Source: an uncultured Cytophagia bacterium
GTDB taxonomy: Bacteria > Zhuqueibacterota > Zhuqueibacteria > Thermofontimicrobiales > Thiofontviventaceae
Length of the DNA: 60,958 bases
Direction: 5' to 3'
Assembly (NCBI GenBank): GCA_964498785.1
Contig: CAZCJL010000030.1
Span: forward strand, 1 to 60,958
The position numbers were made by a program, and so were the translations under genes. The notes below the pieces were generated by a model. That model did not search any database. It saw nothing but the letters and a program-made list of their open reading frames with translations, and was not told the DNA's origin. Shown piece by piece: positions 321-11,865 of the stretch (positions are counted from its first letter, which is position 1; each line of letters starts with the position of its first letter).

Positions 321-3300
321 ATGAAAAACCGTTTGTTTCTATTTTGTTGGCTCATATTCGGGCTCACAATCGGGGGCTTCGTGAACTCCATTGGGAATGC
401 AGCTCCAATTAAAGTCGTTATAATTGATGCCGACGACATTTCCGATGATATTGCCAATGGCTTTCGTGAAGTGTTCAGTTCGAACGGCTGCATAACAACG
501 ATTATCCAGAGAAATGACGTAATTAGTTTCGAATTCTCTGTGTATGATATTATTGTCATCAGTCCGGCCAATTACTCTGCCTGGCAGAATTATTCCGCAA
601 TCCCGGATTCAATCTATGCAAGCTCCAAACCAATTATTGGTTTGGGAAAGGCCGGATATTATCTTTTTGGTATCAATAATTTACCCATCGGAAATCCGCA
701 GGGAATGCACATATCGAATGACAGCACAGTATTACTCAAATCAACCGGACCCTATTATGATTTTCCGAATATTATTCCCATTCCTGCTGACAGTACAGTG
801 ACATTGTATACGAGCGCTCACCGGGTAGGCATTCATTATCCGGAGCCTGTAGCCGGTGTAAATCCCATCGGCATGGGTAAAAAGTACGGAGGCTATCTCT
901 ACATCGCGACTTTTGAAAATCGGTTTTTACTCTGGGGATATAATGAATCCGCGGACTCATTAACAAACATTGGCAATGACCTGCTGATGAACCTGGTTTA
1001 TTACATGGCCGGTCGTACTCCGGCAGATGCCCCGCCGGATCACTGGGATTTTAAATCCGGCACAGGGAATTATGCGACTGTCGTTATTCCCTCGGCAATC
1101 CAGCCGGCAATTGGCAGCGAATTGCTGGAATCGGGTGATTTCATCGGCGCATTTACCCCGGACAATGTATGCGCCGGATGGATCGAATGGCAAAATGTAA
1201 ACGCTGCGCTTTCTGTCTGGGGAGATAACAATCAAACTCCGGACATCGACGGCTTTCGCGTCGACGAGCAAATTAGCTACCGCATTTTCCAAACGCAAAC
1301 ACAGCAAGAATTTACAGATGTTGTTGCAGCGTACGCCCAGGGCGACGGTTTGTATGCAAACAATGCGTTTATGATTCTCAGCCAGTTAAACGCGCTTGCA
1401 CCAGGATTATCCGTACTTTTTGTCCCGGCAGATACGCTTGATTTTGCCCCGAACATCACAACTCTCTCATTCCCGCTGGAAAATCATGGGAGTGGTGAAC
1501 TTATCTGGAGTGCAGCCGCGCAACCGGAAAAACCATGGCTCGTCGCTATCGATCCTTCCAATGGCATCGGAAATGCCGAAATCCAGGTAACTGTTGACCA
1601 CCAGCAGTTAACTGTGCCAGCAGATACAACAGATATTATCATTCAATCGAACGGCGGAACCGGACAAATCACCGTCATTATTCGTCAATCTACTGAATTG
1701 CCACCGCACTGGGATTTTCCATCTCAAACCGGAAACAACGCCACCGTAATTATACCTGCGGAAATACAGCCAACCGTGGATGGCGCTCCACTTCTCCTGA
1801 ACGATTATATTGGCGTGTTTACACCGTCGGGCCTGTGTTGTGGCTGGCGCCAGTGGAATGGTGAAAATCTTGGGATCACTATTTGGGGAGATGATGACCA
1901 GACGCCGGAAATTGATGGATTTCAAACCGGCGAATTAATGTTCTATCGGGTATTTCGATCATCTGTTTCAAGAGAATGGACGAATATCGAAGTGGCATAT
2001 TCACAAGGAAATGGCAGGTACTCGACAAATACAATTTTTATCCTCGGGATGTTTCATACATTTGTAACAGAAATTCCGTTTCTTTATGTCGAACCGGACA
2101 CATTAAATTTCGGGACGACGACAGACACGATGATGTTTCACATCGAAAATCATGGCAGCGGGGTACTTGAATGGAGCCTGACCCGTTCTTTTGAGAAATC
2201 CTGGCTGACAGACATCAGCCCGGAAAATGGAACAGGCGATACTGAAGTTTGGGTTGTTGTGGACAGGCAATATCTTACCGAACCGGCCGATACCGCTAAA
2301 ATCATCATCAATTCAAGTGGCGGAAACGGAGAGGTAATTTTATTCATTGAAAAACCGTCAGATGATTTCCCGGATCACTGGGAATATAAGCCGAATACCG
2401 GTAACAATGCAACCGTAATAATACCTGCGGAAACAGAGCCAACTGTAGATGGCGCTGCCCTTCTTATGAACGATTATATCGGCGTGTTTACACAGGCCGG
2501 ATTATGCTGTGGCTGGCGGCAGTGGACTGGTGAAAATCTTGGTATCACTATTTGGGGTGACGACGACCAGACACCGGAAATTGATGGATTTCAAACCGGC
2601 GAATTAATGTTCTATCGGGTATTTCGATCATCTGTTTCAAGAGAATGGACGAATATCGAAGTGGCATATTCACAGGGAAACGGTCTGTACTCCACGAATA
2701 CAATTTTTATCCTCGGAATGTTTCATACATTCGTAACAGAAATTCCGTTACTTTATGTCGAACCGGACACACTAAATTTCGGAACGACGACAGACACAAT
2801 GATGTTTCACATCGAAAACCATGGCAGCGTGGTGCTTGAATGGAGCCTGACCCGTGCTTTTGAGAAAGCCTGGCTGACAGAGATTATCCCTGAAAGTGGA
2901 ACAGGCGATACTGAAGTTCGGGTTGTTACGGACCGGCAGTTTCTTACTGATCCGGCAGATACGGCTAAAATCATCATCAATTCAAATGGCGGGAATGGAG
3001 AGGTAATTTTATTCATTGAAAAACCGTCAGATGATTTCCCGGATCACTGGAGATTTAAACCAAATACAGGGAATAACGTAACTGTGGTGCTGCCAACAAC
3101 GGCGAATCCAAATATTGATAGCGCTCCGTTATTGACAGGTGATATTATCGGCGTATTTACTCCGGCAGGTTTGTGTTGTGGCCATGCAGCCTGGAATCAT
3201 GAAAATATCGCGATTGCTGTTTGGGGGGATAATCCGCAATCACCAGACATTGATGGATTTCAGTCACAGGAGCAACTGTACTATCGCGTCTTTCGTCCGG

Positions 3301-3731
3301 CAACTGCCTGTGAATGGACGTCAGCGAACGTTGAATACTCACAGGGAACCGGATTGTACGAGGCGAATCAATTTATGGTAATCAACCGATTTGATGTGAT
3401 CACAACATCGGTTGCTCAGGCGCAGGAAATAGCCCGACCGCAGTGCGTTCAATTACAGCAAAATTATCCGAATCCGTTTAATGCACAAACGACCATTCGC
3501 TATGATATTATCGAATCTGCAAATGTTGATATAATGATTATGGATATTCGCGGTGCAGTTGTTCGCCAGTGGAATTTTCAGAATCAAGCAACAGGTTCGC
3601 ATCAGGTTATCTGGAATGGCAGGGATCAAAATGAAGCAAATGTTGCGTCCGGAGTCTATTTTTGCAGATTATCCGTTCGCAATATGAACAGCAATACTCA
3701 AATAATTCGAAAGCTGATATTTTTAAAATAG
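321..3731 (+). CDS. Giant modular secreted surface protein: signal peptide, ~270-aa N-terminal domain, four tandem ~223-aa repeat units (a CC-motif module plus a BACON/Ig-like module), and a T9SS C-terminal sorting domain. The ORF track begins at TTG 219; ATG 321 is preferred.
   Basis: MKNRLFLFCWLIFGLTIGGFV signal peptide after a Shine-Dalgarno-like AAGAAAGG. The unit HW.F...TGN.ATV.P......G..L...D.IG.FTP.GLCCGW..W..N..I..WGDD.QTP.IDGF......YRVF......EWT...V.YSQG.GLY occurs four times. The C-terminus NYPNPFNAQTTIRYDI...GVYFCRL...RKLIFLK matches the Por_Secre_tail pattern. Confidence 0.8.
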   Translation: MKNRLFLFCWLIFGLTIGGFVNSIGNAAPIKVVIIDADDISDDIANGFREVFSSNGCITTIIQRNDVISFEFSVYDIIVISPANYSAWQNYSAIPDSIYASSKPIIGLGKAGYYLFGINNLPIGNPQGMHISNDSTVLLKSTGPYYDFPNIIPIPADSTVTLYTSAHRVGIHYPEPVAGVNPIGMGKKYGGYLYIATFENRFLLWGYNESADSLTNIGNDLLMNLVYYMAGRTPADAPPDHWDFKSGTGNYATVVIPSAIQPAIGSELLESGDFIGAFTPDNVCAGWIEWQNVNAALSVWGDNNQTPDIDGFRVDEQISYRIFQTQTQQEFTDVVAAYAQGDGLYANNAFMILSQLNALAPGLSVLFVPADTLDFAPNITTLSFPLENHGSGELIWSAAAQPEKPWLVAIDPSNGIGNAEIQVTVDHQQLTVPADTTDIIIQSNGGTGQITVIIRQSTELPPHWDFPSQTGNNATVIIPAEIQPTVDGAPLLLNDYIGVFTPSGLCCGWRQWNGENLGITIWGDDDQTPEIDGFQTGELMFYRVFRSSVSREWTNIEVAYSQGNGRYSTNTIFILGMFHTFVTEIPFLYVEPDTLNFGTTTDTMMFHIENHGSGVLEWSLTRSFEKSWLTDISPENGTGDTEVWVVVDRQYLTEPADTAKIIINSSGGNGEVILFIEKPSDDFPDHWEYKPNTGNNATVIIPAETEPTVDGAALLMNDYIGVFTQAGLCCGWRQWTGENLGITIWGDDDQTPEIDGFQTGELMFYRVFRSSVSREWTNIEVAYSQGNGLYSTNTIFILGMFHTFVTEIPLLYVEPDTLNFGTTTDTMMFHIENHGSVVLEWSLTRAFEKAWLTEIIPESGTGDTEVRVVTDRQFLTDPADTAKIIINSNGGNGEVILFIEKPSDDFPDHWRFKPNTGNNVTVVLPTTANPNIDSAPLLTGDIIGVFTPAGLCCGHAAWNHENIAIAVWGDNPQSPDIDGFQSQEQLYYRVFRPATACEWTSANVEYSQGTGLYEANQFMVINRFDVITTSVAQAQEIARPQCVQLQQNYPNPFNAQTTIRYDIIESANVDIMIMDIRGAVVRQWNFQNQATGSHQVIWNGRDQNEANVASGVYFCRLSVRNMNSNTQIIRKLIFLK
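1035..3710 (+). repeat. Intragenic tandem repeat, four units of ~669 bp. Units 2 (about 1705..2373) and 3 (about 2374..3042) are ~90 percent identical at protein level and near-identical at DNA level.
   Basis: The unit starts DHWDFKSGTGN / PHWDFPSQTGNN / DHWEYKPNTGNN / DHWRFKPNTGNN lie 670, 669 and 669 nt apart. The duplicated spurious ORFs 1976..2170 and 2645..2839 have near-identical translations. Confidence 0.85.
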
Positions 3732-3858
3732 AAATTTTAATCAACTAGTAGCTCCCGGCTATTAGCCGTCAGCCTTTCATAATCATAAAGGAATAACGCT
3801 AAGAGCCAATAGCGAATGGCTAACAGCCGAATAATTTAAAAAGGAGGTTTGATTCATC

Positions 3859-5400
3859 ATGAAACAAAAACGTATTTCATCAATAATGTTGTATGTAATC
3901 CCATTTATTCTGTTGGGATTCATCAGTGTCTCTCTGGCGACACCTGTCTACATCCAGAACTTTTCTGATTTTCCGAAATATCCCTATAATACATCCGCTT
4001 ATATGTCCGGAGGTCGATATGTCGGGTGCGGTCCCACGACAGGCGCCATGATTTTGGGATATTTCCATCATGTGGAAGGGATGTCCAGTTCCACCGGTTT
4101 GCTAACAAGTCCGGTGACCGGCGTCAATGAGGGTCTGAATACCGCCTGGGCGCTGCATGGTTCTGGCTATATGAGCACAAATTCCAGTGGTTTTGGCTCG
4201 CCTTACGATATTGAACCGGGAATGGAAGATTATGCAGCGGATCGAGGCTACGAAATCGATGTATTGATTCATGTGTCGCCGATTTATGATCCCAGCTCTA
4301 CGACGTGGGATGCCTATGGGCCGTATGGCACATCCTGGTTAAATGATGGTGATTTCTGGATTCAACATACCGATGGCACATGGGATTTCGACAAAGCTAA
4401 ATTCTGTGATTTTGTCGCGCCCAAACTCGCAAACGGAGTTACTGTTTTTCTGGCAATCGATACAGACCTTGATGGCGGTGGTGATCATTGGGTTCCGCTA
4501 GTGGGTTATGATCGAGCGACTTACAAATATTATTTCTATGATACTTACAGCACAACCTTGCGGTCAGCAGATATTCACTATTGCGGCGCTACAGGTCCCA
4601 AGAAAGATAACGCGATTTCATTTGTGCGCACTGTTACTTACGTCGGCCCGGCCGGTTCCGACGTCAATCCACCACGAGATATTGTTGCTCTTAGCGGTTA
4701 CAACGGCTCGGTTCCTCTTGCCTGGAATGTACCATCCGGCACAAGCCGTTCACTTGCAAGACCGGCTGTCATTTCCCCGGAATCAGAAAATGCACCTAAA
4801 GAATTTGATATAATTCCCGAAGACCAAAATCACAATCCGTTCAGTTCAATCCTGCAATGGACAGAACAACCCTACTCAGTCGATGAAGTCCCTGGTGGAC
4901 AGGAGACAACGCGGTCCATGGCTTTTCTTGGTTATAATGTATATCGAAGTACTTCGTCCGGCGGACCATTTACTAAAATTGCCAATCAGATAACCCGGCA
5001 ATACTATCTCGATAACGGCGCCGGAATTAACGCCACACGTTATTATCGGGTTACAGCCGTTTATAACGAAGGAGAAAGCTCTCCCACGAGCACTGTAAGC
5101 GCAACAACAGTGAATGATGGCTATCATATCGAAGCGGGTTGGGCGAATTCTCCGCCAAGCATAAACGGAGTTGTGGAAACCAGTGAATGGAATAATGCAA
5201 CTCAGGTAAATATTACATATCCGGGCTATTCGGGAACAGTAACGCTTTATGTTATGAATGATGCAAATAATCTGTATCTCGCCGTTCATGATGGCCGTGA
5301 CAATAGTCAGGAAAATCTCGATCAGTTCGCGCTGTTCTTTGATGAAAATATTAACAGAGAATGGCCATCTTCGTCTACCAATGAAGAAGGAGTGATTTAG
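3859..5400 (+). CDS. N-terminal part of a large secreted protein: signal peptide, C39-like papain-fold cysteine peptidase domain, fibronectin-III domain, and the start of a CBM9/DOMON-like beta-sandwich. It ends at an in-frame TAG (5398..5400) inside that beta-sandwich, and the frame stays open to 7953.
   Basis: Strong Shine-Dalgarno AAAAAGGAGG. MKQKRISSIMLYVIPFILLGFISVSLA signal. VGCGPTTGAMILGYF (Cys motif) and GGDHWVPLVGYD (His motif) fit the peptidase_C39-like family. YNVYRSTSSGGPF...YYRVTAVYNEGESSPTS is a fibronectin-III domain. Confidence 0.7.
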   Translation: MKQKRISSIMLYVIPFILLGFISVSLATPVYIQNFSDFPKYPYNTSAYMSGGRYVGCGPTTGAMILGYFHHVEGMSSSTGLLTSPVTGVNEGLNTAWALHGSGYMSTNSSGFGSPYDIEPGMEDYAADRGYEIDVLIHVSPIYDPSSTTWDAYGPYGTSWLNDGDFWIQHTDGTWDFDKAKFCDFVAPKLANGVTVFLAIDTDLDGGGDHWVPLVGYDRATYKYYFYDTYSTTLRSADIHYCGATGPKKDNAISFVRTVTYVGPAGSDVNPPRDIVALSGYNGSVPLAWNVPSGTSRSLARPAVISPESENAPKEFDIIPEDQNHNPFSSILQWTEQPYSVDEVPGGQETTRSMAFLGYNVYRSTSSGGPFTKIANQITRQYYLDNGAGINATRYYRVTAVYNEGESSPTSTVSATTVNDGYHIEAGWANSPPSINGVVETSEWNNATQVNITYPGYSGTVTLYVMNDANNLYLAVHDGRDNSQENLDQFALFFDENINREWPSSSTNEEGVI

Positions 5401-5517
5401 ATCGCATGGAATAGCAGTGAGAGCCAATCCTTTAGTGTCTGGGGAGGTCGTTATGGATATTGGCCGGATCATATTGGCCTGGCAACCAATGTCACAACGC
5501 CGGGAGTCACTCACGGT

Positions 5518-7953
5518 ATGTCGCGTGCGTCCGTTTATGTTGAATACGAGGGGACATACAATCTTTCTTCGAGTCCGATAAATGGCAGTCCGGGTTCCAA
5601 AATTGGGATTCTGGCGTTTACCTATGATTACGACGTGGAATATTTCAATGCATTCTGGCCGCAGGAAGCCGTGCGCCTGGGTGCAATTACTTCGAATCCT
5701 CATAGCTGGGGCACAGCGCCGTTCAGTTTCGGGAACTTAATCCTGGCGACAGAACCTGCCGCTACGAATCCAGATATTGCTGTAAATCCATCAACATGGA
5801 ATTATGGCGATGTCAATGTGGGAAGCTCCAAAGATCAGGTTTTTCAGGTGCGAAATGAAGGAGATGCGACGCTGTCAATCACCAGTATTTCACTCGTTGG
5901 GGATGCATCCAGTTTTCAGGTAATCTCCGGCGGTAGCGCAACCAGTCTGCCTCCTAACGGCACACACAATGTTACTGTACGGTTCCAACCCATCAGTTCC
6001 GGAACCAAATCGGTACAAGCCCGAATTTACAGCAACGATCCTGACGAAAATCCATTTACAGTAACATTGACTGGTCGTGGCGTCACTGTTCAGCCGCCGG
6101 TATTGCACGTTACTCCCACAACTCTCAATTTTGGGGCGTCACTGAATTCACTGACTTTTGACATCAGCAACAGCGGTGAAGGCACGTTAACCTGGACAGT
6201 CCAGGAAATACCGGACAAGCCATGGATCACTTCTGTGAGTCCCTCTTCTGGTACGAATAGCGGAACCGTGACTGTAAACGTGAATCGGGCTCAGTTGACT
6301 CCATCCAGCGATGCCGGGCTTATTCATGTAGAGTCCAACGGAGGGGATCAGGATGTGGTTGTAAATATTTCCAAATCAAGCATTCCGCTACCGGGACACT
6401 GGACATTTACCGAAAACACCGGCAACAGCGCCACCATCGTTATTCCCACTACCGCGAATCCAAATATTGACGGAACCCCGCTGCAAAACGGGGATTACAT
6501 CGGCCTGTTTACACCGGCAGGATTATGCTGCGGCTGGAAAGTCTGGCAAGGTAGCAATATGTCTATAACAGCCTGGGGCGATGATAATCAGACGCCTGCT
6601 GTGGACGGCATCCGTTCCGGCGAACTCCTTCATTATCGGGTCTGGCGCGAAATTCTTGGCAAAGAATGGACATTCGTTGAAGTGGATTACAGTCAGGGAA
6701 CTGGTTTGTATGCTGCCAACGCGTTCATGGTGCTCAGCCGCTTCGATGTATCTGAACAGCGGTGCATCACGCTGAATTTTAATGCAGGCTGGAACATGTT
6801 CTCGCTGAATGTCGCTCCCGGCGATCCTGATATCGAAGCGGTGCTTGCATCTGTGTTAGATAAATTAGTGCTCGTAAAGGACGGTGAGGGAAATACATTC
6901 ATTCCGATGTACAGTATCAATGACATTGGCGCTGTACACACGGCAAAAGGATACCAGGCTTATTTAAATACAAGCGCTTCTCTGGAAGTTTGCGGACAAC
7001 CGATTGCACCGGACACGCCAATTCCACTTCCTTCTGGCTGGAGCTTGATCAGCTACCTGCCCGATCATCCTATGAATATCGCTACCGCACTGGCAAGTAT
7101 TCAGAGCCAGCTTGTACTTGCAAAAAACAATGAAGGTCAGACATATATCCCCATGTATGGAATTAATGATATCGGCGACATGCAACCATGCCAGGGATAT
7201 CAGGTATATTTGAACGGCGGCGCCACACTGACGTATCCGTCAACAGGTGCGCTCTCGAAAGAAATGGGCGAACGATCGGTGTCTGCTCATTTTCAATACA
7301 ATGAGCGTACCGGTGAAAATGCGACCATCGTTTTGCCGACGTCCATCCAGCCCCGTTATGCAAATGGCGCCCCGCTGGATAACGGCGATGAGATTGGCGC
7401 TTTCACGGCTGACGGACGCTGCTGCGGCGCGATTATCTGGAATTCTGATCATTGCGCCATGACGTTGTGGGGCGATAATAGCAAAACCGAGAATGTCGAT
7501 GGCGCAGTTTCCGAAGAGATGCTGCAACTCCGCGTCTGGCAAAAATCGACAAACCGTGAATATGTAGTCGCTGCGAATGCAATTGAATACCAACGCAATG
7601 GCTATATGATTCTCACCGATTTCATTGCACAATCTGCGCAGGATGTGAATCAGGCGGGCGATCTGGCCACACCCGCGTCATTCCAGTTGTGCCAGAATTA
7701 CCCCAATCCATTTAATCCTGATACACGCATTAATTTTGACATCCCACAAAAAGCAACTGTAACGCTGGCGATTTACGACCTGCAGGGCCGCCGCATACGC
7801 ACATTAATCCAGGGCGAAAAAGCAACCGGTCACTATGTGGCTGTCTGGAACAGCCGCACGGACACCGGCGAAAAAGTACCCAGCGGTGTGTATGTATACC
7901 GGTTGACTGCGGGGGATTATGTTTCCAGTAAGAAGATGATATTGTTGAAGTAA
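5518..7953 (+). CDS. C-terminal part of the same reading frame as 3859..5400 (frame is open from 5401). Contains an ASH/HYDIN-type Ig-like domain, a BACON-like domain, two CC-motif modules separated by two ~75-aa beta repeats, and a T9SS C-terminal sorting domain. It has no signal peptide or convincing ribosome-binding site of its own, so it is probably one gene with the upstream part.
   Basis: Same frame as 3859 (both 1 mod 3), with no other stop between 5401 and 7953. NPSTWNYGDVNVGSSKDQVFQVRNEGDATLSITSISLVGD...FQPISSGTKSVQARIYSNDPDENPFTVTLTGRG is ASH-like. GLCCGW and GRCCGA modules. C-terminus QNYPNPFNPDTRINFDI...GVYVYRL...KKMILLK. Confidence 0.7.
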   Translation: MSRASVYVEYEGTYNLSSSPINGSPGSKIGILAFTYDYDVEYFNAFWPQEAVRLGAITSNPHSWGTAPFSFGNLILATEPAATNPDIAVNPSTWNYGDVNVGSSKDQVFQVRNEGDATLSITSISLVGDASSFQVISGGSATSLPPNGTHNVTVRFQPISSGTKSVQARIYSNDPDENPFTVTLTGRGVTVQPPVLHVTPTTLNFGASLNSLTFDISNSGEGTLTWTVQEIPDKPWITSVSPSSGTNSGTVTVNVNRAQLTPSSDAGLIHVESNGGDQDVVVNISKSSIPLPGHWTFTENTGNSATIVIPTTANPNIDGTPLQNGDYIGLFTPAGLCCGWKVWQGSNMSITAWGDDNQTPAVDGIRSGELLHYRVWREILGKEWTFVEVDYSQGTGLYAANAFMVLSRFDVSEQRCITLNFNAGWNMFSLNVAPGDPDIEAVLASVLDKLVLVKDGEGNTFIPMYSINDIGAVHTAKGYQAYLNTSASLEVCGQPIAPDTPIPLPSGWSLISYLPDHPMNIATALASIQSQLVLAKNNEGQTYIPMYGINDIGDMQPCQGYQVYLNGGATLTYPSTGALSKEMGERSVSAHFQYNERTGENATIVLPTSIQPRYANGAPLDNGDEIGAFTADGRCCGAIIWNSDHCAMTLWGDNSKTENVDGAVSEEMLQLRVWQKSTNREYVVAANAIEYQRNGYMILTDFIAQSAQDVNQAGDLATPASFQLCQNYPNPFNPDTRINFDIPQKATVTLAIYDLQGRRIRTLIQGEKATGHYVAVWNSRTDTGEKVPSGVYVYRLTAGDYVSSKKMILLK

Positions 7954-8235: not shown

Positions 8236-9891
8236 ATGAAAAATCAGAAATTCATTTTCACAAGTGTATTACTGGTTTTGATGACTTGTGTACTCACCGG
8301 GTTTGCGTCCACGTATTATGTGGATACGCGTCATGGGGCGGCTGATGATGGCAATCCCGGCACGATTACGCTGCCGTGGAAAACAATTAGTCATGCGGCG
8401 GAAACTGCTGGCGCGGGTGATACTGTGTTGATCCGCACAGGGCAGTACTCGGAATTCATCTATTTTGATCAATCCGGGAATGCAACAGATGGTCCCATTG
8501 TTTTTGCTGCCTATCCCGGAGAAAGGCCAGTTATCGATGGAAGCGGCGTGGCAGATGCAAATAACGGGATTGTGCTGGATAAGGATTACGTTGTAATATC
8601 AGGTCTGGAAATTTGCAACTGGAATGAAAACGGTATCTGGATTGAAAATGCGGCGTTTTTTGAAATATCCGGTTGCATTGTGCATGATGTGTTTTACGGC
8701 ATCGGAATTACCGATGGTGCACACGATTTTGTTTTCAACCGGGTTGAGGTACACAATTTTTCGCTCTATGGATTCGATGCCTCTCCATCCGGCGAAGCCA
8801 TCTGTTATAACGGCACGTTCACCGAGTGCAGCGCGCATACCGGTCGTGATCGTGACCAGAATGTTGATGGATTTGCGCTGGGCCACGGCGATCAGCATCA
8901 TTTTACATTGAATCGTTGCATAACGTACGAACTGTTCGACGGCTTTGATATCAGCGCCAGAAATACCACTTTGACCAGTTGCCTGGCGTACAATTGCTGG
9001 AATGGCTGCTATAAATTATGGCAGGATGAGGTCTCTCTTGTGAATTGCATCGGTTATAACGCTACCGGTTCTGTTGTGGAACTGGACTGGGACGGGGAAC
9101 CCGGAACAACCACGTTGATGAATTGTACCTTTTTCAATGGCGAAACCTATACCATCTGGATCGAAAATGCGGCAGATACGTTAAAAATGGCCAATTGCAT
9201 TCTCGCCGGCGGAGATAATATCATGCTGGCGTTTGAGCAATTTAGCGCACAAAATTATTTCGGTGATTATAACCTGTTCCACAATGATGATCCGGCCCGG
9301 GCAGTTGTTGTGGGATATACCGACGAATTGTCACTGGATCAATTATCTTCCGGTGAATGGAGTAATTACAGCGGTCAGGACAACCATTCGTTGGTAGCAC
9401 AGTCAAGCACCGATCTGTTCACCGATCCGACAAATGGTAATTTTCAACTGAGCGCTACAAGTCCGGCTGTGGATCAGGGGACAGATGAGAATGCACCGGG
9501 TAATGACTTTAGTGGCAAACCCAGACCATCGGGGAATGAGTTCGACATCGGCGCGTTTGAGTTTCAGCAGGAAATTGCAATTAATAGTAAACCAGTCACC
9601 CGCAATTGGCTTGAATCGCCGGTACTTCACGGGAACTTCCCGAATCCATTCAATTCAGCAACACACATTAATTACAAAGTGCCCAAAGATTCACACGTAA
9701 AAATCGTTGTCTACAATCTTCTCGGTCAACAGGTTCGGTTGCTTGTTGATGGGTTTCATCTGCGTGGTCATTATCTTATAAAATGGAATGGAGTTGATGA
9801 TTGTGGCAACTGCGCTGGAAGTGGAATTTATCTATGTGCTTTCTTTTCTGGAAACTCAACCCAAACCGCACGGCTTTTATATTTGAAATAG
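8236..9891 (+). CDS. Secreted right-handed parallel beta-helix repeat protein (pectate-lyase fold) with a T9SS C-terminal sorting domain.
   Basis: Shine-Dalgarno AGGAGG. Signal peptide MKNQKFIFTSVLLVLMTCVLTGFA. Repeated beta-helix rungs (NNGIVL..., ISGLEICN..., GCIVHDV...). C-terminus NFPNPFNSATHINYKVPKDSHVKIVVYNLLGQQVRLL...RLLYLK. Confidence 0.75.
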   Translation: MKNQKFIFTSVLLVLMTCVLTGFASTYYVDTRHGAADDGNPGTITLPWKTISHAAETAGAGDTVLIRTGQYSEFIYFDQSGNATDGPIVFAAYPGERPVIDGSGVADANNGIVLDKDYVVISGLEICNWNENGIWIENAAFFEISGCIVHDVFYGIGITDGAHDFVFNRVEVHNFSLYGFDASPSGEAICYNGTFTECSAHTGRDRDQNVDGFALGHGDQHHFTLNRCITYELFDGFDISARNTTLTSCLAYNCWNGCYKLWQDEVSLVNCIGYNATGSVVELDWDGEPGTTTLMNCTFFNGETYTIWIENAADTLKMANCILAGGDNIMLAFEQFSAQNYFGDYNLFHNDDPARAVVVGYTDELSLDQLSSGEWSNYSGQDNHSLVAQSSTDLFTDPTNGNFQLSATSPAVDQGTDENAPGNDFSGKPRPSGNEFDIGAFEFQQEIAINSKPVTRNWLESPVLHGNFPNPFNSATHINYKVPKDSHVKIVVYNLLGQQVRLLVDGFHLRGHYLIKWNGVDDCGNCAGSGIYLCAFFSGNSTQTARLLYLK

Positions 9892-10812: not shown

Positions 10813-11865
10813 ATGAAAATACTGGTAAAATCACTTACAGGAGCAGGATTAATTTTATTGTTGACAGGTATTATTTTTGCAATTCCATTGAACCAGGCGA
10901 TATGTCAGGAGTCTTTCTTTCATAAAAGTCTTCATTATACAACCGAAGGCATGCGTTTCTGGTATGAAGAAGAAGGCGGATTCAAAAACGTTACCGGAAT
11001 CCCGTATTCTGAATTAGATTGTCAAACCTGCCATACGGCAACATGCGATGTGTGCCATGCAGAAAAACAGGGCGAGAAATTCTCATTTTCGACTGCAAAG
11101 GCGCAACAATCAGAGACATGCCTGACATGCCACAGCCGGGAAGCGGCGACTTTCCGATTCGGTAAAAACATGGGGATGTTAGATGTTCACATTGCGAACG
11201 ACATGGTTTGCACAGATTGCCACAAAGCAGAAGATGTTCACGGGGACGGTACATTTCATCGCTCCATGCGTGACACAAATGCAGTGAAAACCGCGTGTAC
11301 CGATTGTCACGAGCCGGATACTGAACTACGCGCACATACTGTGCACAAAGGCAAACTAAATTGTAACGCCTGTCACGTGAAATATACAACAACCTGTATG
11401 AATTGCCATTTCGATAATTTTTTAGCATCTGGTTCCAGAAAGGGAAATTTCCAGGCGTTGCCGGCAAATGTCTTTCTCGTAAACTACAACGGCAAAGTAA
11501 CAACGGCAAATATGCAAACACTGGTGTACAAGGATGAAAAATTTATCGTTTATGCACCTTACTACACACATTCAGTGCAGGCTAATGCCCGGACCTGTGA
11601 TGAATGCCATGGCACCGATTTAGTGAAGAAAATTAAAAATGGTGAAAAAGTCGCGGCAATGGAATATCAAGACGGGAAGTTTGTTCCTCATAACGTTGCG
11701 GTTCCGGTTGTTCCCGACCAGCTCACATGGCCTTTTCTAACAAAAGAAGGTGAAAATTGGGTCGTTCTGAACAATGATAAAAAAGTGCATGTCCAAATGG
11801 CATGTTATGGAACAGCACTGACAGAACAACAGATTAAAAAATTAGCAATGCCATTTAAGAAGTGA
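10813..11865 (+). CDS. Membrane-anchored octaheme c-type cytochrome (8 CXXCH motifs).
   Basis: Shine-Dalgarno AAAGGAGG. N-terminal transmembrane helix. CQTCH, CDVCH, CLTCH, CTDCH, CTDCH, CNACH, CMNCH, CDECH. Confidence 0.85.
   Translation: MKILVKSLTGAGLILLLTGIIFAIPLNQAICQESFFHKSLHYTTEGMRFWYEEEGGFKNVTGIPYSELDCQTCHTATCDVCHAEKQGEKFSFSTAKAQQSETCLTCHSREAATFRFGKNMGMLDVHIANDMVCTDCHKAEDVHGDGTFHRSMRDTNAVKTACTDCHEPDTELRAHTVHKGKLNCNACHVKYTTTCMNCHFDNFLASGSRKGNFQALPANVFLVNYNGKVTTANMQTLVYKDEKFIVYAPYYTHSVQANARTCDECHGTDLVKKIKNGEKVAAMEYQDGKFVPHNVAVPVVPDQLTWPFLTKEGENWVVLNNDKKVHVQMACYGTALTEQQIKKLAMPFKK

Follow-up and report, generated by a model that had tools for sequence, protein, structure and literature searches.

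Related β-sandwich domains of secreted proteins

Surface proteins with repeated β-sandwich modules are commonplace. Among the cargo of the type IX secretion system (T9SS), BACON_2 (PF19190) and the HYDIN/VesB/choice-of-anchor-D Ig-like domains are extracellular β-sandwiches of ∼100 residues, and the carbohydrate-binding modules CBM20, CBM41, and CBM26 as well as the cohesins are small β-sandwich modules found on secreted enzymes. Adjacent cysteines that form a vicinal disulfide are known from the Cys-loop of the nicotinic receptor (C192-C193) and from methanol dehydrogenase (C103-C104), and such disulfides lie mostly in tight turns.

The locus described here belongs to a window of 60,958 nucleotides, the whole stretch of DNA analyzed, from an uncultured Cytophagia bacterium of the Zhuqueibacterota (contig CAZCJL010000030.1). 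It encodes two proteins carrying a repeated module that shares the extracellular β-sandwich character and approximate size of BACON_2 and the HYDIN-type domains and is likewise comparable to the CBMs and cohesins. The module constitutes a domain family so far without a name, of an ordinary kind.

Organization of the two genes

The features of both genes are collected in Table 1. In the six-frame translation of the window, a profile built from the six units recovers six module copies and no more, in agreement with the preliminary description. The other copies show 37 to 46% pairwise identity with copy 1 over ∼125 residues, with a mean column identity of 64%. Copy 3 arose from copy 2 by recent tandem duplication, as shown by a direct repeat (positions 1694-1993 versus 2363-2662) of 86% identity; the repeat period is 669 nt. 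The relative P0019 contains three module copies versus four.

Table 1. Features of the module-bearing genes
Feature	Coordinates	Strand	Details
Gene 1	321..3731	+	1136 aa (ORF and translation); signal peptide, unassigned ∼240-aa N-terminal domain, (module-BACON_2)x3, fourth module, T9SS C-terminal sorting domain
Module copy 1	1035..1400	+	Profile i-E 5e-61; NVCAGW, single Cys
BACON_2 Ig-like domains	1401..1697, 2070-2366, 2739-3035	+	Pfam PF19190, three stretches, E 9e-18
Module copy 2	1698..2069	+	Profile i-E 3.5e-66; GLCCGW
Module copy 3	2367..2738	+	Profile match; GLCCGW
Module copy 4	3036..3407	+	Profile i-E 2e-64; GLCCGH
T9SS type A sorting domain, gene 1	3465..3710	+	Residues 1049-1130; PF18962 (Por_Secre_tail) E 5e-7; TIGR04183
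Gene 2	3859..7953	+	Single 1364-codon frame with in-frame TAG at 5398-5400; signal peptide, unassigned head, choice-of-anchor-D/HYDIN-type Ig, BACON_2, module, X, X, module, sorting domain
Module copy 5 (module A of the cassette)	6388..6759	+	Profile i-E 1.9e-64; GLCCGW
Domain X pair (each ∼80 aa)	6760-7005, 7012-7236	+	X profile 7.7e-33, 1.1e-32
Module copy 6 (module B of the cassette)	7282..7632	+	Profile i-E 1.4e-51; GRCCGA
T9SS type A sorting domain, gene 2	7699..7941	+	PF18962 E 2.6e-6; TIGR04183

Both proteins show the two hallmarks of T9SS type A cargo, a C-terminal sorting domain recognized by TIGR04183 and PF18962 and an N-terminal signal peptide, the latter visible in the translations as the hydrophobic N-termini MKNRLFLFCWLIFGLTIGG... 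and MKQKRISSIMLYVIPFILLGF.... The TIGR04183 scores of 35.9 bits for gene 1 and 43 bits for gene 2 (cut-off, 23) support the T9SS secretion proposed at the outset, and the neighboring segments first called BACON-like are indeed BACON_2 domains, with the E value given above for gene 1 and one of 3.6e-8 for gene 2. A PNPF-type C-terminal motif is found in 113 of 164 relatives. The peptidase domains previously attributed to the two proteins found no support, the best candidate being Peptidase_C39_2 at an E value of 0.05 and 14.6 bits (cut-off, 24).

The description of two giant proteins holds in that modules occur in both; the second, however, is encoded by a single gene broken by a TAG codon. Both ORFs of gene 2 lie in one common frame, and the homologous protein P0055 (1360 aa) spans the break, covering residues 1-1364 in one HSP at 57% identity with a tryptophan opposite the stop. 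Recoding of this codon was rejected: TAG terminates eight other long ORFs, there are no other split genes, and a Trp codon (TGG) occupies this position in the homologue. The minus-strand ORFs 960..1307, 1608..1925, 4876..5703, and 7240..7632 are regarded as shadow ORFs, given the hundreds of homologues known for the frames on the plus strand.

A module family without a curated name

Searches with the module profile recover single-module homologues in other organisms with E values down to 1e-45 and multicopy proteins down to 1e-225, which places the similarity far above chance. The family comprises 4,763 representatives at an E value of ≤1e-3, equivalent to no fewer than 4,763 clusters at the 50% identity level, and 505 at ≤1e-30, with a maximum of 15 copies per protein. 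It is characteristic of T9SS-exported proteins from KSB1 (candidate division; Zhuqueibacterota), Ignavibacteriota, Calditrichota, and allied lineages of the FCB superphylum. The conserved motifs are TGNNAT, GDEIGVFT..G.C.G, and WGDD..T...DGF..GE.

A confident match to an established family was sought in Pfam-A and NCBIfam, and none was found. Single units match no Pfam-A family at an E value of ≤1, and 44 diverse members give just six unrelated noise families with one member each; among 17 full-length relatives, no Pfam model covers the module region. With NCBIfam, a single unit has no match at an E value of ≤1, and the 44 members yield single-member noise matches only. Relatives consisting of the C-terminal cassette only carry precomputed annotations of PF18962 or PF13860 and nothing else, and the NCBI names of module relatives are just "T9SS type A sorting domain-containing protein" or "hypothetical." Against PDB chains, a single unit and the profiles retrieve one chance EF-hand protein (E value, 0.17) and then no match. 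The module thus stands, as originally supposed, as an autonomous extracellular unit of ∼110 to 120 residues without a curated name. Names for the module and its companion, domain X, would improve the annotation of thousands of proteins now listed under the two NCBI labels above in genomes of uncultured KSB1, Ignavibacteriota, Calditrichota, and Bacteroidota.

The AF2 model of copy 5 is all-β with a pLDDT of 93.5 and a pTM of 0.87, supporting the suspected β-sandwich; the model of the cassette reaches a pLDDT of 90 and a pTM of 0.78. The module is accordingly modeled as an independently folding eight-strand β-sandwich of ∼115 residues. The TGN.ATVxxP segment, earlier seen as preceding the module, belongs to it and forms its first strand in the family alignment and the AF2 model. 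The best structural matches are PLAT/LH2 and transthyretin-like sandwiches (5ek8_A and TTR-52, 3uaf_A), which likewise have eight strands and a similar size and superpose over 91 to 94 residues; neither sequence nor structure comparison found a solved relative. BACON_2 differs from the module in its conserved motifs, and an alignment of the module family against the BACON_2 copies of the window gives an hhalign probability of 0.05 (E value, 0.83). Together with Pfam BACON_2 matches confined to the segments between modules, this rules out a divergent BACON domain.

Module architectures and the C-terminal cassette

The module alternates with BACON_2 in the window and with HYDIN/ASH-type Ig domains in giant proteins. 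Within these proteins, the partner domains are likewise repeated and interleaved with it, and their stalk or spacer role is presumably that of the module as well. The frequencies that follow come from sets of best-scoring relatives, in part retrieved with the cassette as the query, and are therefore biased toward relatives of the window proteins. Two module copies occur in 70 of the 164 best proteins, with a median spacing of 181 aa (IQR, 175 to 185), and the second copy ends a median of 109 aa from the C terminus. In gene 2, the domain X pair lies between module copies 5 and 6, at positions 6760..7236, which have no Pfam match. Among 269 relatives, X is present in 142, of which 133 have it as a pair and 141 also contain the module; the module-X-X-module arrangement is always found at the C-terminal end. 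Domain X is thus a second unnamed domain and a companion of the module, and module, X, X, module, and sorting domain make up a conserved C-terminal cassette.

The N-terminal heads before this cassette are unrelated to each other and include Peptidase_M64, Kelch with Laminin_G_3, BNR/sortilin, FG-GAP, CARDB, fn3, cohesin, and PPC. At the other extreme are minimal proteins with nothing but a single module between signal peptide and sorting domain, such as P0005 and P0013, the latter encoded by an intact gene in the interior of a 30-kb contig. The neighborhoods of such small single-module genes give no functional hint: the genes nearby have no relation to them, or a contig end truncates the gene.

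The cysteine position

The adjacent cysteines of GLCCGW had been described as invariant and as the defining, functionally telling feature of the module, and as suggesting a strained vicinal disulfide; such a disulfide might shape or gate a ligand site or act as a redox or metal switch. The pair is indeed present in five of the six window copies and frequent in the cassette subfamily (27 A modules and 22 B modules, of 42 each). Copies 2, 3, and 5 have no cysteines besides this pair, so that, if oxidized, the two would pair solely with each other. The claim of invariance nevertheless fails even in the window, where copy 1 reads NVCAGW. Among the 333 module copies of 164 proteins, conservation is confined to the first cysteine (position 47), which is retained in 92%, with L, V, or A as replacements. 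Position 48 is A in 39%, C in 24 to 25%, V in 22%, and G in ∼11% of the copies; CC is found in 80 and C-[AVG] in 222, while 199 copies contain exactly one cysteine and 19 contain none. All readable cysteine pairs in proteins with at least five copies are devoid of the second cysteine, and both modules read C-A in a relative that shares 48% identity with the window cassette. The CC form is concentrated in one subfamily, the C-terminal cassette.

The structural setting also differs from that of the known vicinal sites. The module resembles the nicotinic receptor and methanol dehydrogenase in bearing an adjacent cysteine pair in an extracellular or periplasmic protein; in the module, however, the second cysteine is dispensable family-wide, and positions 47 and 48 begin a β-strand within a hydrophobic stretch of the AF2 model instead of a turn beside a ligand or cofactor. 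Alignment columns 46-48, 50, and 53 are 82 to 99% hydrophobic. Many of the module hosts are, moreover, anaerobes or facultative anaerobes (PMC11683472), a further point against an oxidized pair. A functional vicinal disulfide is thus very unlikely. With A, C, V, or G at the second position and L, V, or A replacing the first cysteine, the pattern probably reflects a small hydrophobic core position, and the double cysteine, as a subfamily quirk, does not point to a binding site built on a disulfide. Cys47 would be a small buried core residue of strand 3, its neighbor in GLCCGW representing a subfamily substitution at an adjacent small-residue position with no functional disulfide. The eye-catching Cys-Cys does not outlast the family-wide comparison. 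No literature was found on vicinal disulfides in connection with T9SS, nor on KSB1 together with type IX secretion.

Possible functions of the module

The family, its fold class, architectures, taxonomic range, and cysteine statistics are established by these comparisons; for the module itself, we infer that it serves as a stalk or pedestal, that Cys47 is buried, and that Ca2+ is bound. The favored reading, to which we give a probability of about one half, is that of a β-sandwich of T9SS cargo serving as a stalk or display element indifferent to the head it carries, possibly stabilized by calcium. Strung together with BACON_2 or HYDIN/choice-of-anchor-D Ig-like domains, the modules would form long surface fibers, and the fixed module-X-X-module cassette directly before the sorting domain would act as a membrane-proximal pedestal, keeping the variable enzymatic or binding heads off the cell after cleavage of the sorting domain and anchoring of the protein. 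The conserved residues T11, N13/N14, D36, D65, D66, T69, D73, E79, E93, and N111, mostly located in loops, are candidates for a Ca2+ site that would stiffen the unit, and the same acidic and polar loops may lend some adhesive capacity. A spacer repeat is supported by shifts in copy number through tandem duplication of module plus BACON_2 and by the three copies of the relative P0019. The module also offers a defined and confidently modeled unit for studying how T9SS cargo is held and presented at the cell surface.

Two observations fit a pure stalk less well. More than 10 polar or charged positions are conserved in the family alignment, which exceeds the usual need of a pure spacer and would fit a ligand site too, and the minimal one-module proteins suggest that the module does something alone. 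In a lectin- or CBM-like reading, one form of the glycan or protein binding first suggested, the conserved aromatic residues W53, W63, W86, Y101, and Y108 would form a glycan site with the acidic and polar loops, possibly dependent on Ca2+, and may tether cargo or cell to a polysaccharide or another surface. This is a real, if minor, possibility; a substrate-specific CBM is disfavored because the module accompanies many unrelated heads instead of carbohydrate-active enzymes. A PLAT/C2-like, Ca2+-dependent binder of membrane or LPS is another reading, which we consider rather improbable: next to the sorting domain, the module would attach to anionic LPS or the outer membrane by means of exposed tryptophans and of acidic loops loaded with Ca2+. 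Equally doubtful is a more elaborate version, in which module-X-X-module would be an unrecognized FCB surface-anchoring pedestal docking via Ca2+-loaded loops to the outer membrane or anionic LPS of the same cell, tuned by redox through the thiol pair or a reversible vicinal disulfide of the CC subfamily. If true, the cassette would not be a passive spacer and would play a new functional part in how T9SS cargo is displayed.

A catalytic or self-cross-linking domain of the sortase, thioester, or ester-bond type, using His4, Cys47, and Arg84 or Asp36, can draw on the conservation of these positions (His4 ∼81% where aligned, Cys47 92%, Arg/Lys84 ∼88%, and Asp36 ∼90%) and on weak Foldseek matches to thioester and isopeptide pilins. 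With TM scores of 0.22 to 0.35 and E values of ≥0.04 for these matches, and no conserved Lys or Gln column in the family alignment, the module does not group with the thioester, isopeptide, or ester-bond adhesins, and such a function is extremely unlikely. The module was not found to belong to CBM20, CBM26, or CBM41 either. The cohesin-dockerin system co-occurs in some module relatives; the Pfam cohesin and dockerin matches lie elsewhere in their sequences, and the module is neither of the two.

A New Domain Family in T9SS Cargo Proteins

The repeated ~115-residue extracellular module of gene 1 and gene 2 is real and defines a large new domain family of ordinary type, accompanied by a companion domain, X, and a conserved C-terminal cassette. 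The family is useful for annotation and for the study of T9SS cargo display and brings no surprise in principle. Comparison with Pfam-A (2025 copy), NCBIfam 20.0, and the PDB bears out the preliminary description of the module as undescribed. Single units give no matches at an E value of ≤1 in Pfam-A or NCBIfam, individual scans of 44 diverse members return just unrelated noise confined to one member each, and the module region of 17 full-length relatives is free of any model. Module profiles match no PDB chains. For relatives that are nearly all cassette, the collection's own Pfam annotation lists sorting-domain families alone, and relatives are named "hypothetical" or "T9SS type A sorting domain-containing protein" at their source. 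A relationship to the neighboring BACON_2 domain is ruled out by an hhalign probability of 0.05.

The AlphaFold2 model of copy 5, built on a 17-sequence alignment, is all-beta with eight main strands (pLDDT of 93.5 and pTM of 0.87). A Foldseek search with this model against the PDB and viral models yields nothing at an E value of ≤1e-3, with TM scores of at most 0.42; thus, the module is predicted to be a beta-sandwich, a common class, with no close solved relative.

When 1.84 billion representatives are searched exhaustively with the profile, 4,763 proteins match at an E value of ≤1e-3, 2,394 at ≤1e-10, and 505 at ≤1e-30; these proteins reach 7,635 residues in length and carry up to 15 copies each. 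In a scan that covers a single genome for each species, 146 stretches are confirmed. The 80 best loci all come from metagenome-assembled genomes, mostly of candidate division KSB1 (Zhuqueibacterota), a member of the FCB superphylum (PMC11683472). Other hosts among these 80 are Ignavibacteriales/Ignavibacteriota, Bacteroidota, Calditrichaceae, Kapaibacterium, Raymondbacteria, Chitinispirillaceae, and Rhodothermales, besides a few bins with other labels. KSB1 proteins are the closest relatives of the window proteins, which makes KSB1 the likely origin of the window. One KSB1 genome (Zod_Metabat.436, JAFGMA01) holds ~15 separate module loci among the best 80, which indicates a strong lineage-specific expansion of these surface proteins.

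Genes and Module Copies in the Window

Coordinates of the two module genes and of domain X
Feature	Position	Strand	Description
Gene 1	321..3731	+	1136 aa; signal-peptide-like N terminus; C-terminal T9SS type A sorting domain
Gene 2	3859..7953	+	one 1364-codon gene, with TAG at 5398-5400
Domain X, two copies	6760-7005 and 7012-7236		between copies 5 and 6; ~80 aa

A profile of the six units run against all six frames recovers exactly six copies at the places first described, four in gene 1 and two in gene 2, and no others. The other copies show 37 to 46% identity to copy 1 across ~125 residues. The intermodule segments of gene 1 are BACON_2 domains (three stretches, E value of 9e-18), and its sorting domain is matched by PF18962 (E value of 5e-7) and TIGR04183 (35.9 bits, with a cutoff of 23). 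A 669-nt tandem duplication comprising a module and a BACON_2 domain includes copies 2 and 3 and is visible as a direct repeat (1694-1993 versus 2363-2662) with 86% nucleotide identity. The relative P0019 shares 79% identity with gene 1 and has one module-BACON_2 unit fewer; therefore, module copy number differs among close lineages.

The second protein, initially delimited as 5518..7953, is corrected to the 3' part of a longer gene broken by an in-frame TAG. The open reading frames 3859..5400 and 5518..7953 share one frame and are separated solely by this codon. With the relative P0055 (1360 aa), the joined translation gives a single alignment segment that spans residues 1 to 1364 at 57% identity and places Trp opposite the TAG. 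Recoding of the codon is ruled out, as TAG is the ordinary stop of eight other long open reading frames in the window. Because of the shared frame, the full-length relative, and the normal use of TAG elsewhere, gene 2 is a single gene that contains either a TGG-to-TAG nonsense change or an error in the sequence. Gene 2 is the only split gene found across the window. Upstream of its first module lie a choice-of-anchor-D/HYDIN-type Ig domain and one BACON_2 domain. Neither the N terminus of gene 1 (321-1034) nor the head of gene 2 (3859-5397) has a significant Pfam or NCBIfam match. The "peptidase" label attached to these proteins is unsupported, the lone hint being a subthreshold Peptidase_C39_2 match (E value of 0.05) in the gene 2 head.

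The Cysteine Pair

The adjacent cysteines, taken as invariant and interpreted as a vicinal disulfide, already vary inside the window, where copy 1 reads NVCAGW, and this interpretation fails across the family. The 164 best proteins yield 333 near-full-length copies, of which 92% have Cys at column 47, with Leu, Val, or Ala in the remainder; column 48 is Ala in 39%, Cys in 25%, Val in 22%, and Gly in ~11%. The resulting pairs are CA (119), CC (80), CV (65), and CG (38); exactly one Cys is present in 199 of the 333 copies and none in 19. CC is enriched in the cassette subfamily with two copies, where it occurs in 27 of 42 A modules (corresponding to copy 5) and 22 of 42 B modules (corresponding to copy 6). 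Proteins with at least five copies have no CC among their readable Cys pairs, the pair being CA. Within the window clade, CA is found in both modules of a relative with 48% identity to the cassette, and module B of a more distant group is devoid of Cys.

The pair lies at the start of strand 3 in the copy 5 model, and columns 46, 47, 48, 50, and 53 are 82 to 99% hydrophobic. The simplest interpretation makes Cys47 a small core residue, with any small side chain tolerated at position 48. A vicinal disulfide may occur in the CC subfamily but is not a family-wide feature. The distant single-module proteins P0008 (HFDDCAF) and P0009 (HFTQCAT) have a Cys in the N-terminal segment in addition to Cys47; the two residues could pair in a conventional disulfide that ties the N-terminal strand to strand 3, in which case Cys47 is reachable from that strand.

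Domain X, the Cassette, and Possible Functions

Giant relatives show modules and HYDIN/ASH-type Ig domains in alternation; one such protein, 4,497 aa long, has 14 modules and 21 Ig stretches. Two modules occur in 70 of the 164 best proteins, with a median gap of 181 residues (interquartile range of 175 to 185) and a median of 109 residues from the second module to the C terminus. In the cassette, this spacer consists of two copies of domain X, characterized by GWNMFS ... L.K..G..YIP.YGIN.IG ... G.GYQ.YL; neither window copy has a Pfam match. Of 269 relatives, 142 have X; it is paired in 133 of them and accompanies the module in 141. The M-X-X-M order (M being the module) is C-terminal in every case. 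In many relatives, this block lies directly upstream of the T9SS sorting domain. The N-terminal heads are mutually unrelated and include an M64 peptidase, Kelch plus laminin-G, a BNR/sortilin propeller, FG-GAP, CARDB, fn3, cohesin, and PPC. The AlphaFold2 model of the cassette (pLDDT of 90 and pTM of 0.78) limits disorder to the linker before module B.

A fixed block beside the sorting domain, with heads of any kind attached, matches the expectation for a stalk or pedestal and not that for a substrate-specific binding module. Two features argue against this: the existence of tiny proteins consisting of one module and a sorting domain, and about a dozen conserved polar or acidic positions, mostly in loops (T11, N13/14, D36, D65, D66, T69, D73, E79, R84, E93, and N111). 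The module may alternatively have a lectin-like or membrane-binding role. In long adhesins, Ca2+ sites stiffen the units; by analogy, the conserved positions probably constitute a putative Ca2+ site that would stiffen the module.

Neighboring Genes

A third consecutive T9SS cargo gene (8236-9891, 551 aa) encodes a signal peptide, a middle part of right-handed beta-helix-like appearance, and a C-terminal NFPNPFN-type sorting-domain motif. It adjoins gene 1 and gene 2, and three secreted surface proteins are therefore encoded in a row. Further downstream, a 350-aa open reading frame (10813-11865) with a signal-peptide-like N terminus and many CxxCH motifs looks like a putative multihaem c-type cytochrome.
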